Assembly: GCA_011601165.1 (NCBI GenBank)
Contig: GCA_011601165.1_4547.1
Strand: one strand, 5' to 3'
Source: Escherichia coli
Lineage (GTDB): Bacteria; Pseudomonadota; Gammaproteobacteria; Enterobacterales; Enterobacteriaceae
DNA length: 40,001 nt
Each line of letters begins with the position of its first letter. Position 1 is the stretch's first letter. The notes under the pieces were generated by a model. It ran no database searches and was not told the origin of the DNA. It saw only the letters and a program-made list of their open reading frames with translations. This document shows positions 12,605-28,896 of the stretch, piece after piece. The position numbers were made by a program, and so were the translations under genes.

Positions 12605-12650
12605 TAGTCTAATCATAAAGGCCACTCGATGTGAATGACCTTGAGTCTAG
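12605..12650 (-). promoter_or_regulatory. conserved RNA hairpin, candidate RNase III site upstream of gene 5
   Basis: mRNA GACTCAAGGTCAT…GTGGCCTTTATGATTAGACT; one of four copies of the AAGGTCA/TGGCCTT stem. Confidence 0.5.
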
Positions 12651-12652
12651 AC

Positions 12653-12817
12653 CTAGAAGTCTGTACGCAAGAAGTGATACATGAACTTCCGGTTAGCTTT
12701 CTTCCATGCCTCAGAGTTGAACCGCTGGTCTCCCAGAATGTTCGACAGGCAGGTAGCTTCATCGCTCCACCATTTGTACATGAACCGATGGTATCGAGCT
12801 TTAAGTTTCTTAAACAC
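12653..12817 (-). CDS. small basic protein, 54 aa (gene 4.x region)
   Basis: GTG start 7 nt after GGAGG; MFKKLKARYHRFMYKWWSDEATCLS…; not in ORF track (under 60 aa). Confidence 0.4.
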   Translation of the reverse strand: MFKKLKARYHRFMYKWWSDEATCLSNILGDQRFNSEAWKKANRKFMYHFLRTDF

Positions 12818-12859
12818 TAACGGTCCTCCGTAAAATTCTTATAGTCAGCGATGTCCCGA

Positions 12860-14560
12860 CTAGAAGTCTTGGTTTTCCCACGAGCCGCTATCATCTTCTC
12901 CGCTGCTGCCAGTGAAGCTAATCGGTTCAAGCCATCCTGTGAGCTTGTTGTATTCAAGGTGCCCCGCGATGCCCGTATCGCCAGTAAAACGACACTTGAG
13001 TAGACGAAGCTGAACAACGTTAGGAGTATCACCTTGCTGGTTACGCTCAAGTGCGATGATAGTATCAGATAATTGGCGTAGAGCACCAGAACCACGTAGG
13101 TCAGTGATTGAAACAGGTCGTCCTTCTTCATGCGATTTACCTTTCTCTGGGTTCTTCAGGTGACATATAACAACGACAACCACTCCCTTCGTCTTCGCAA
13201 ACTTCTTGAGACGAGTCATGATTCGGTCAATGGTCTTACGTTCATCTGAGTTATCTTCCATGCCAGACACAACGATTGAGATGTGGTCCAGCAGTATGAC
13301 GTCACAATCAAGACCATCCACCATGTAGGCTAGCTTAGCGAACAAGGTGTCTTCCTCTGACTCTGCGAATGAATCGTACAGGTGGAACTTATCGTCTCCG
13401 AACAGCTTGTCATACCATTCATCGAACCGTCCATCCTCTAAGATGGCTTGCTTCAGTTCCTTGCTCTGGCGTAGACGGACGTTATTGTCCAGACCCATAA
13501 GGTCCTGAACTGTTTCCTCTACAGCCTCTTCAAGCATAGCCATGCCAACACGCTTACCGCCTCTGCCCCACTCTAAGAGGAGCTGGCGGACGAAGGTAGA
13601 CTTACCCATGCCCGACCCAGAAGTCACCATGATAAGCTCACCGGCTCGCGCACCTAGTGTCATCGCGTTGAGTGTTGTGCATGACGAGAACATGAGACCT
13701 TCAGTCTCTGCCTTAAGCATTGCCTCTCGTGTGCGGTCCTTCAGACTTGCCGCTGATACCACGCCAGCCGGGACGAAAGGTTTAGCGTTCCAGATTGCAT
13801 CAGTGATAGCCTTGAAGTCCTTGGCCTGAAGCGCAGCGTTGGCGTCTTTGTACCCGTTGATGAATGCTACCTTAACCCGACCTGCTGGTAATACTGGAGC
13901 TGCATCCTCAATGGCCTGACGACCCGGTTCGTCCATGTCGAACATCAGGATAATCTCTTCGAACTGGTCGAGGTACTCAAGGTTAGCAGCCATAGCTTTC
14001 TTCGCAGACTTGGAGCCTAACGGAAGCGAGACCACTGGATACTTACCGTCCTGCACCTGAGCCACAGACAGAGCGTCTATCTCACCCTCGGTGATGACTA
14101 TCTTCTTACCACCGTTCCAGAGCTGAGAGCCGAAAAGCATGTCAGACTTGACGCTACCGATAGCCGTGAAGTTCTTCTCAGCGTCTCGGACTTTCTGTCC
14201 TACCTTGGTCCCAGACCTGTCGTAATAATCAGCGACCTGCACCATCTTGCCACCCATGTTACCTACCCAGTAGCTGTACTTCTTGCATATCTCCATGCTT
14301 AGACTACGGGCTGGTAGTGGGACATATCGTCCAGCGTTCTCACCGAACGTTAACAGATTGCTCACTTGCTTTCTACCTCCTGAGGGTGTGTATCCCTCGG
14401 TCAACTCCATGTCTCCTTTCTTCCATGCGACTGAAGGATCGCAGGCGAAGCAGTACATGTGCCCATCTGAGTAAACACCATTGGCATCAGAGGACCCACA
14501 GTCTGGACACTGGGTGTGGTACAGAAAGACACTCTCATCGTCTTGGTCATCGTATGGCAT
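12860..14560 (-). CDS. 4: DNA primase/helicase (T7 gp4)
   Basis: 566 aa; N-terminal zinc ribbon CPDCGSS…CFAC, Walker A GSGMGKST, acidic C-terminus ending DF; resembles T7 gp4 as recalled. Confidence 0.95.
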
Positions 14561-14610
14561 TGGTCACTCCTTAATCACAAATGCGAACAGAGGGACAGGA
14601 CTCACGGTCC

Positions 14611-27551: not shown

Positions 27552-27562
27552 TGCGTCACCTC

Positions 27563-28354
27563 TTAAGAGTTAAAGATGCGGTCAACGCGAACAGTCAGGG
27601 AGGTCAGAGTAAGGTCCTCAGACCCTGTAACTGCAATGCCAAGCATGATGCCAGTAGTAACGAACGAGTCGTCTGTATTAGCTATGTAGCTATGGATGGC
27701 TGCCTCACGAATGGTGAATAACTGCTGGTCATCTGTGTCCGTCACGGAAGACATGGTAGTGTTATCGGGTCTACGCAGCTGCACTCGCCACTTATGGGCT
27801 GAGGCTGTAGGGAACTCACCAGCGAACCGAACGACGAAGTTTACACCACTGAGTCCCTCTTTAGCTGGGAACATCATCTTTCCTTCGGAGATAGTAACGA
27901 CGCCGCTGTCCACTCTCTTCACTAAAGGTAGAGTCATTAGGTTAGTGAACTGACCAGCCGCACACACTTGGGTTCCTGACCAGTCGAAGGTATCCAGAGA
28001 ATACTCAGCGTGGGATACAGGACGTGACTCCCGATAAGTATACTCTACCTTAACAAGTCCGACGCCGCTGTTATTCAGCTTGGTGACTTTAAGAATCAGG
28101 AAGTCGTCTTCTGTGGTACCAACCGCTTCCAGACGTACACTGCCTGATTGTAGAGGCCAGCCGCCACCATCGGAGAAATTACCAGTAGCAGACGTACCGT
28201 CGCTTAGTGTAATCCTTGTAGACTCGGCGTTAGCTGGGACCTTCACGTATATTGTACCAGATAACAAGTGACCGGATGCGTTCTTCAGTCCAGATGGGGT
28301 ACCAGTAGCAAAATGCCAAACTACGTCAGTTCTCAAAGTAATAATATTACCCAT
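27563..28354 (-). CDS. hypothetical protein, 263 aa; no T7 counterpart at this position
   Basis: ORF starts 8 nt inside Rz 3' end; Gly/Ser/Thr/Val-rich, predicted beta-rich; no motif recognised. Confidence 0.6.
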
Positions 28355-28799
28355 TGTCTTTCTCCTTGTCTTGTTGAAGTTTTCGAATAGTATCCTGTAG
28401 TGCTTTAATCCAAGCGTCCCCTTTCAGTCCGATGGAGATAAGACGTTTAGCATCTCGTTCGTCAAGTTCGGCGTAACCATCAATGATGCATCGACCGTCA
28501 CTTTGCGGGGTTCCACTCGTAGGTTTGACTCGGATGCGCAACCGCTTATTGTCAGACTGAAGGTCAGCAATAATCCTATCAGTGCTACCTTCCAGCGAGG
28601 ACATTTCGTCCTGAAACCGTTTGGACACCTTGTTGACTTCAGCTTGGACAGCAAGTCTTGTATCCTCCGATGCCTTAAGATTCGAGGTGTATTCTGCATT
28701 GATCTTAGCCTCCCACTTGTTGTTAGCGGTGTGATAGCCACCAGCAAACATCACTGCTGCAAGTAACCACGGAGCCGCTCTCTTTAAAAAATCGAGCAT
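28347..28799 (-). CDS. 18.5: i-spanin Rz (gp18.5)
   Basis: 150 aa, N-terminal TM helix then coiled coil; Rz1 embedded. Confidence 0.8.
   Translation of the reverse strand: MLDFLKRAAPWLLAAVMFAGGYHTANNKWEAKINAEYTSNLKASEDTRLAVQAEVNKVSKRFQDEMSSLEGSTDRIIADLQSDNKRLRIRVKPTSGTPQSDGRCIIDGYAELDERDAKRLISIGLKGDAWIKALQDTIRKLQQDKEKDNG
28424..28699 (-). CDS. 18.7: o-spanin Rz1 (gp18.7), embedded in Rz in another frame
   Basis: lipobox LTISGC; C-terminus …LMVTPNLTNEMLNV… as T7 Rz1 as recalled; start set at ATG 28699 with SD GGGAGG. Confidence 0.7.
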   Translation of the reverse strand: MQNTPRILRHRRIQDLLSKLKSTRCPNGFRTKCPRWKVALIGLLLTFSLTISGCASESNLRVEPRKVTVDASLMVTPNLTNEMLNVLSPSD

Positions 28800-28854
28800 A
28801 GTTGCCCTCCCGGTTTATCAGATTTCACGTAGAGTCTCCTCCACTAGTTAGTGT

Positions 28855-28896
28855 TAACCATAAAGGCCACTACATATAGTAATGACCTTGAGTCTA
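28855..28896 (-). promoter_or_regulatory. conserved RNA hairpin, candidate RNase III site (R18.5 equivalent)
   Basis: mRNA GACTCAAGGTCATTACTATATGTAGTGGCCTTTATGG. Confidence 0.5.

Follow-up and report, generated by a model that had tools for sequence, protein, structure and literature searches.

The closest described counterparts of the element considered here are the ribonuclease III (RNase III) processing sites of the coliphages T7 and T3. In T7 R1.1, a conserved segment of the upper stem holds the proximal and distal boxes that are recognised by Escherichia coli RNase III. T7 transcripts are processed at such sites, and the phage grows without RNase III (PMC6938266). Work on R1.1-derived substrates (Pertzev & Nicholson 2006, PMC1540722) established that internal loops limit the E. 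coli enzyme to one scissile bond, that the 3' hairpin left by the cut protects from 3'-5' exonucleases, that about 11 base pairs (bp) are required from cut to loop in the minimal R1.1 substrate, and that recognition is determined by a distal box (canonical UA/UG, with a stringent U.G) together with a 4-bp proximal box. A G-C pair is inhibitory at position 2 of the proximal box or beside the scissile bond, and R1.1 variants can uncouple binding from cleavage (PMC1540722). Here we describe a family of hairpins in a stretch of 40,001 nucleotides (nt; hereafter the window) deposited as E. coli contig GCA_011601165.1_4547.1 of assembly GCA_011601165.1, which is one circularly permuted genome of a Kayfunavirus, a K1F-like phage of the T7 group in the Studiervirinae. 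The hairpins are very probably the RNase III processing signals of this phage, orthologous to those of T7 and T3.

RNase III-type hairpins in a Kayfunavirus genome

The motif AAGGTCAT-N(9-11)-GTGGCCTT matches exactly at 12618-12642, 19287-19313 and 28863-28889, and the relaxed core AGGTCAT…TGGCCT adds a fourth copy at 22989-23012, all on the minus strand. Dinucleotide-preserving shuffles yield 0.00 exact and 0.02 relaxed matches on average, against 3 and 4 observed, and no shuffle reached the observed counts. These are the four hairpins that an earlier note, made from the letters of this DNA, had placed in the leaders of gene 5, gene 1.1, the early peptide genes and gene 18.5; they are present there, each ahead of the expected start codon (Table 1), on the coding strand, which the note had left out. 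The stem it gave, AAGGUCA/UGGCCUU, is right for three copies, but the third copy in its list (22989-23012) reads GAGGUCA/UGGCCUC, the basal A-U being replaced by G-C in a compensatory change. Its description of a 7-bp stem closed by an 11-13 nt loop has to be replaced: the upper stems are really 9-12 bp long, with a conserved eighth pair (U.G) and one to four more pairs inside the supposed loop, leaving true apical loops of 3-5 nt at all but one of the four sites, the exception being 22989-23012 with 8 nt. Each hairpin is, moreover, just the top of a longer conserved element (~57 nt), which also includes a 7-bp lower stem and an internal loop, and while all four copies are real, the family in the window numbers six, the additional members lying at 23422-23477 and 24172-24235 on the same strand.

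For comparison, the T7 sequence was inspected around ten RNase III cleavage coordinates, reportedly those of Dunn & Studier 1983; RNase III sites are not listed as features in the T7 records NC_001604 and V01146. Five of the ten sites carry AGGTC…TGGCCT, and the reported cuts fall in one alignment column at 6 of 7 sites, three nt 3' of the upper stem (…CCUUUAU^GAUU…, the caret marking the cut). The window site at 12601-12657, …ACUCAAGGUCAUUC…GAGUGGCCUUUAUGAUUA…, aligns with T7 R1.1, …ACUCAAGGUCAUUCGCAAGAGUGGCCUUUAU^GAUUG…. Judged by such alignments, the hairpins are sequence homologues of the T7 sites, a relationship that goes beyond likeness of shape. T7 R0.3, R0.5, R1, R1.1, R1.3, R4.7 and R18.5 have the same conserved blocks, AGUGAUAGACUCAAGGUC…GUGGCCUUUAUGAUUAUCACU, the same succession of lower stem, internal loop and upper stem and the same sense-strand orientation as the window sites, and the genomic places of R0.3, R0.5, R1.1 (after a phage promoter), R4.7 and R18.5 are the same in both phages.

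These seven T7 sites and the four window sites first noted align in register over ~57 nt, flanks included, with the consensus AG-G-UA-ACUCAAGGUCAU…GUGGCCUUUAUGAUUA-CACU. A covariance model, R1, was built from this 11-sequence alignment and run unfiltered on the window and T7. It recovers all training sites at 48-68 bits and also finds T7 R6.5 (35 bits), which was absent from training, and the two additional window sites; nothing else in the window or T7 falls below an expect value (E) of 0.09. As an anchor in place of the T7 coordinates we used the RefSeq record of T3 (NC_003298), a phage outside the training set whose record annotates ten stem-loops as 'RNase III recognition site'. Eight of the ten are matched at their annotated coordinates (R0.5, R4.7, R0.3, R1.1, R18.5, R1, R1.3 and R6.5), with no other match in T3 at E<=1; the two that are missed, R3.8 and R13, are associated with promoters and represent another subclass. 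This result is the strongest evidence that a match to the model means an RNase III site of the T7 group. None of 4227 Rfam families reached its gathering threshold in a scan of the whole window. The processing sites predicted in the earlier note are upheld, still as predictions, by sequence homology to T7 sites, the T3 result and synteny, which agree.

All six sites are syntenic with sites of T7 and T3, and every one of them lies on the sense strand in a transcribed spacer. Two positions had been equated with T7 R1.1 and R18.5, and gene order bears this out: gene 1 is followed by a promoter, the site and genes 1.1 and 1.2, and the gene 18 stop by the site and gene 18.5. In the R1.1-type site the 5' arm of the lower stem runs from about +1 of a phage promoter, ACTATCACTATAGG (19323-19336), matching the order of phi1.1A (5848) and R1.1 (5887) in T7 and of phi1.1/R1.1 in T3; downstream lie a protein of 59 amino acids (aa) weakly similar to T7 gp1.1 (tblastn E 0.004) and then a homologue of the dGTPase inhibitor gp1.2. 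Immediately 3' of this site, a degenerate promoter-like copy at 19257-19283 (minus strand; 70% to the promoter family) recalls the T7 order phi1.1A - R1.1 - phi1.1B. Of the two open reading frames (ORFs) that flank the R18.5-type site, gene 18 encodes the small terminase and gene 18.5 an Rz-like spanin; the site overlaps the stop codon of the former at 28901, as T3 R18.5 (35038-35088) overlaps the end of gene 18, and T3 R4.7 (12970-13018) likewise lies directly upstream of gene 5; the upper stem of the R4.7-type site is identical to that of T7 R1.1. At 24172-24235, the succession of two sigma-70-type early promoters (TTGACA at 24520 and 24372), the site and an ocr-like ORF (PHROG E 7e-55), together with the AGGGU…GCCCU that it has in common with T7 R0.3, identifies the R0.3 equivalent. 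The site at 23422-23477, whose architecture is that of T7 R1.1, begins where a 52-aa ORF ends, at its stop codon, and that at 22971-23028 starts one base past the stop of a 123-aa ORF; in all, three sites begin at or one base past an upstream stop codon, and the R18.5-type site, as already described, overlaps one.

The correspondence is not complete. T7 and T3 both have an R1 upstream of gene 1, where the window instead has a copy of the ACTATCACTATAGG promoter directly upstream of the gene, and both have an R1.3, which has no equivalent in the window because genes 1.2 and 1.3 abut there. Conversely, three sites precede gene 1 in the window against two in T7 and T3. Early gene content differs from that of T7, as do the apical loops and lower-stem sequences, and cleavage in the window phage is a prediction only; T3 differs in its promoter consensus and its early genes (S-adenosylmethionine hydrolase rather than ocr).

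Among relatives, K1F gives six covariance-model matches at the same gene positions as the window, and pO2, MopsHU1 and KKP_3263 give four to seven. Orthologues of the site at 22971-23028 occur in all four genomes, and one of the site at 23422-23477 in pO2. The core of the R18.5-type site, ~50 nt, matches 682 phage records (hosts Klebsiella, Escherichia, Salmonella, Yersinia and others). No RNase III site is annotated in the inspected K1F, pO2, MopsHU1 and KKP_3263 records, nor among the 40 listed of the 682 core-sharing records, where only coding sequences and one promoter are annotated at the match. The element is therefore of a known kind, that of the T7 and T3 sites, real but ordinary, in a genus where it is seemingly not annotated. 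The hairpins open no new biological question; their main value is for annotation, as the six-site map with its predicted cuts gives the transcript units of the phage and may help both in interpreting RNA-seq data and in engineering therapeutic phages of the K1F type, by indicating where an inserted cassette would be processed into stable mRNA.

In Morganella phage MopsHU1 (~12889, its minus strand) a phage promoter stands immediately before the R4.7-type site (ACTATCACTTTAGG-ATAGACUCAAGGUCAUUC…), where the window has none, so that the pairing of promoter and processing-type site varies within the genus.

Table 1. Hairpins, candidate structures and landmark features of the window. Upper stems are given as 5' arm/3' arm; bits are scores of covariance model R1; a caret separates the positions flanking a predicted cut.
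Feature	Position	Strand	Basis	Stem	Fold (kcal/mol; z score)	Predicted cut	Distance to downstream start
R0.3-type site	24172..24235	-	30 bits, E 1e-4 (window+T7), 2e-6 (local region)	CAGGGUCUU/AAGGCCCUG	-23.1; -4.2	24186^24185	41 nt, ocr (gene 0.3), ATG 24144
R0.5/R1-type site	23422..23477	-	38.7 bits, E 5e-7	CAGGUCCUUU/GAAGGGCCUG, 10 bp, GACU loop	-20.3; -3.5	23436^23435	35 nt, 123-aa ORF
Second R0.5-type early site	22971..23028	-	54.7 bits	GAGGUCAUC/GGUGGCCUC	-19.3; -3.4	22985^22984	30 nt, 29-aa ORF, ATG 22954
R1.1-type site	19270..19328	-	62.6 bits	AAGGUCAUGACU/AGUCGUGGCCUU, 12 bp, AAA loop	-20.2; -4.8	19284^19283	38 nt, gene 1.1 homologue, ATG 19245
R4.7-type site, gene 4-gene 5 spacer	12601..12657	-	62.7 bits	AAGGUCAUUC/GAGUGGCCUU; lower stem GGUCUA/UAGACU	-19.4; -3.6	12615^12614	26 nt, gene 5, ATG 12588
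R18.5-type site	28846..28904	-	65.7 bits	AAGGUCAUUAC/GUAGUGGCCUU, 11 bp	-20.5; -4.6	28860^28859	60 nt, gene 18.5, ATG 28799
Candidate R3.8-type hairpin, different subclass	14591..14617	-	sequence and position		-17.6; -3.0		
Candidate R13-type structure	39230..39279	-	fold	AAGGGCCUAUAG/CUAUAGGCCCUU, 12 bp	-21.8; -3.1		
Weak candidate R6.5-type structure	8132..8219	-	fold; 8/200 shuffles fold as well	AUAGUCAUAUC/GAUAUGACUAU, 11 bp, perfect	z only -2.1		
RNA polymerase (gene 1)	19632-22313	-	ORF				
DNA polymerase (gene 5)	10417-12588	-	ORF				
Phage promoter family ACTATCACTATAGG	3925, 4925, 8158, 19323, 22387, 25675, 31968, 39244; a ninth in the direct-repeat family	-	nine exact copies				
Near copies of phage promoter ACTATCACTATAGG	14615, 16733, 17691	-	similarity				

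Secondary structure and covariation

In the structure tested, a lower stem of 7 bp is joined to an upper stem of 10 bp through an internal loop with 5 nt on one side and 6 nt on the other. Common to the window and T7 sites are the upper stem AAGGUC…GGCCUU, an internal loop of 5'-GACUC opposite 3'-UAUGAU and a covarying 7-bp lower stem; the upper stem (9-12 bp) carries the conserved AAGGUCAU…GUGGCCUU, and the whole forms an irregular hairpin of ~20 bp. Fold prediction, proposed as a check in the earlier note, gave the expected architecture, the minimum-free-energy and centroid folds of all six sites showing lower stem, internal loop and upper stem as in T7 R0.5 and R1.1, with z scores from -3.4 to -4.8. 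At the four sites noted earlier, single-sequence folds of -19 to -21 kcal/mol are indistinguishable from those of T7 R0.5 and R1.1.

Across the 11 aligned sequences 93.6% of the cells are paired, a share that falls to 27-46% once the 3' partners are slid; both sides have changed in nine pairs, and none of 500 shuffles reaches any of the observed measures. The lower stem varies in sequence from copy to copy while its pairing is kept, and the two apical pairs of the upper stem covary (UA, CG, GC). A second set came from an exact-pattern scan of viral contigs, which returned ~120 loci, including many in unrelated contigs that match by chance, and from which only matches confirmed by the covariance model were kept, leaving 77 hits in genomes outside the training set. 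In these, 94.6% of the cells are paired (25-47% when slid) and double changes occur in 13 of 17 pairs, figures biased towards the structure in that the alignment was fitted to the model and part of the upper stem was fixed by the pattern; the lower stem lay outside the search pattern, and six of its seven pairs show double changes.

The fold belongs to one strand. The model gives the opposite strand 12-13 bits, compared with 62-66 bits for the coding strand, and the opposite strand folds 6-9 kcal/mol less stably at four of the six sites, the G.U pairs making the structure strand-specific.

Predicted processing and alternative explanations

The rules established for R1.1 were mapped onto the window sites by reading the sequences in alignment with it. 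The distance from predicted cut to loop is at least 11 bp at four sites (upper stems of 10-12 bp) and marginal at 24172-24235, where 9 bp are followed by a bulged extension. The proximal box consists of G-C, A-U, A-U and a non-canonical pair (C.U, A.C or A.A), with A-U at position 2. At the four sites noted earlier the distal-box U.G is kept, within a canonical UA/UG at 12601-12657 and 28846-28904, and no G-C pair stands beside the predicted scissile bond. The sites at 23422-23477 and 24172-24235 have C-G/U-A at the distal-box positions, as does T7 R1, and so do not strictly follow the distal-box rule.

By analogy with T7, host RNase III would bind the coaxially stacked helices and cut one strand, 3 nt past the upper stem on its 3' side (…GGCCUUUAU^GAUUA…), the restriction to a single strand being attributable to the internal loop. 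Long early transcripts made by E. coli RNA polymerase, and later ones made by the phage RNA polymerase, would in this way be divided into defined mRNAs. Where a site starts at or one base past the upstream stop codon, or overlaps it, the upstream product would end just past that codon in a stable hairpin, shielded from 3'-5' exonucleases, and the downstream product would carry a defined leader of 26-60 nt ahead of its start codon; the exact cut positions and any effect on mRNA stability or translation are predicted on the same analogy.

Several points weigh against the assignment to RNase III processing. At 22971-23028 a 9-bp upper stem with an 8-nt loop provides only 10 positions from cut to loop, one short of the 11-bp minimum, so that its reactivity may be reduced, and the two sites added here score lower than the others (30 and 39 bits). 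The T7 cleavage coordinates are not given in the T7 records NC_001604 and V01146, and the 77-hit pair counts carry the bias given above. Literature searches combining RNase III with K1F or Kayfunavirus returned unrelated reviews or nothing, and thus no cleavage data for these phages, and a search combining R1.1, R18.5 and T7-like found nothing. That the host has an E. coli-type RNase III is suggested by the hosts of close relatives. In T7 the gp0.7 kinase raises RNase III activity (PMC4858673); no homologue of it was found in the window (best tblastn E 2.7), and the early ORFs at 22300-24250 (minus strand) are all 170 aa or shorter. Finally, given the growth of T7 without RNase III (PMC6938266), the physiological importance of the sites may be modest and their role is probably modulatory.

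The same growth of T7 without the enzyme, and the separability of binding from cleavage in R1.1 variants (PMC1540722), lend something to a different explanation, by which the hairpins stabilise or insulate mRNAs independently of RNase III, through an exonuclease block or translational insulation, or bind the enzyme without being cut. Their stability, about -19 to -23 kcal/mol, and their position at or one base past upstream stops would suit this role. We nevertheless consider it very unlikely. A mere exonuclease block has no need of an unpaired internal loop and a T7-like cut region (…UAU^GAUUA), yet both are conserved, and this conservation of the cleavage region itself makes uncleaved structural hairpins improbable; nor does a G-C pair, the catalytic antideterminant, stand beside the predicted scissile bond. 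The homologous sites of T7 are cleaved both in vivo and in vitro.

It is less probable still, and close to negligible, that the repeats act at the DNA level, as short linkers of homology for recombination that swaps or deletes cassettes between related phages, with RNA folding incidental. Relatives do differ in how many early sites they carry (2 to 4), and additional ORFs lie between these; the 123-aa ORF forms a cassette between two sites in the window whereas K1F, without the cassette, has a single site of mixed flanks. However, covariation in the lower stem and at the apex of the upper stem keeps the pairing as the sequence changes, which indicates that the RNA structure, rather than DNA identity, is under selection; the G.U pairs are strand-specific and the orientation is always sense. 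Recombination at the sites is better seen as a by-product, compatible with their being RNase III processing signals.

The notion that these stable intergenic hairpins, three of them with UUUAU after the 3' arm, serve to terminate or pause transcription by the host or phage RNA polymerase can be given virtually no credence, since none of the six appears in an intrinsic-terminator scan of 12000-30000 (7 terminator-like sites against 13.3 in shuffles), the stems are followed not by a U-run but by UAUGAUUA, CAUGAUUA, AAAGAUUA or ACUGAU, and genes 5 and 18.5 have no promoter of their own in the window and so need read-through. The homologous T7 sites are not known to be terminators. A role as promoter elements was also considered and rejected, as only the R1.1-type site adjoins a promoter.

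Promoter-associated candidates, the early cassette and genome context

Three further hairpins, each associated with a promoter, are possible RNase III sites of a second subclass, a suggestion that draws on position and modelled folding. The first is made up of the initial nucleotides of the transcript from the promoter at 14615-14628, upstream of gene 4, and reads GGGAUGGGACCGUGAGUCCUGUCCCUCU-GUUCGCAUU, resembling T7 R3.8 (…GGUUUCCCUUU^GUUCGCAUU) and T3 R3.8 in sequence (…CCCUCUGUUCGCAUU) and position; covariance model R1 misses it, as it misses R3.8 of T7 and T3. The R13-type and R6.5-type candidates are stems around the promoters upstream of gene 13 and gene 6.5, respectively, just as the R13 and R6.5 stem-loops of T3 enclose their promoters. 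The latter occupies the position of T7 and T3 R6.5, and its sequence gives no match to the model. For these two promoter-enclosing stems no covariation could be measured, the four relatives being nearly identical there.

The 123-aa ORF of the early region (23029-23400, minus strand) is bracketed by the RNase III-type sites at 23422-23477 and 22971-23028. It has no PHROG match, and its Pfam matches, to transposase-type helix-turn-helix domains, are sub-threshold (E 7e-4). In K1F (1735-1850), which lacks this ORF, there is one site, whose upstream flank corresponds to that of the first copy and whose hairpin and downstream flank correspond to those of the second, and in pO2 two sites upstream of ocr flank a further ORF. 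On sequence comparison, the difference between K1F and the window looks like gain or loss of a cassette with its junction at an RNase III-type site. We raise only tentatively, as somewhat unlikely, the idea that such sites, besides their processing role, may be junctions for the gain and loss of early-gene cassettes in Kayfunaviruses; were recombination of this kind routine, each captured early gene would arrive ready for excision as its own stable mRNA.

The assignment of the window to Kayfunavirus agrees with a 14-kb segment that is 90-94% identical to genomes of this K1F-like genus. ORF translations across the window place all T7-type genes on the minus strand, among them, besides the two polymerases in Table 1, those for primase/helicase, ligase, terminase and more. 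Circular permutation was read from gene order, the early region and genome ends falling at ~22.3-25.7 kb, between gene 1 and gene 19; the window contains no long direct repeat. Between gene 18.5 and gene 19, where T7 and K1F have no gene, lies a 263-aa ORF (27563-28354, minus strand); it matches only a PHROG of unknown function (E 2e-22, in its C-terminal half) and has no Pfam match. The promoter upstream of the major capsid gene gives a transcript (3890-3924, minus strand) that starts GGGAGACCAAGAGGCAGACUCAAGGUUUUCCCCU and folds at its 5' end into a stem-loop resembling the one in the phi10 leader of T7.

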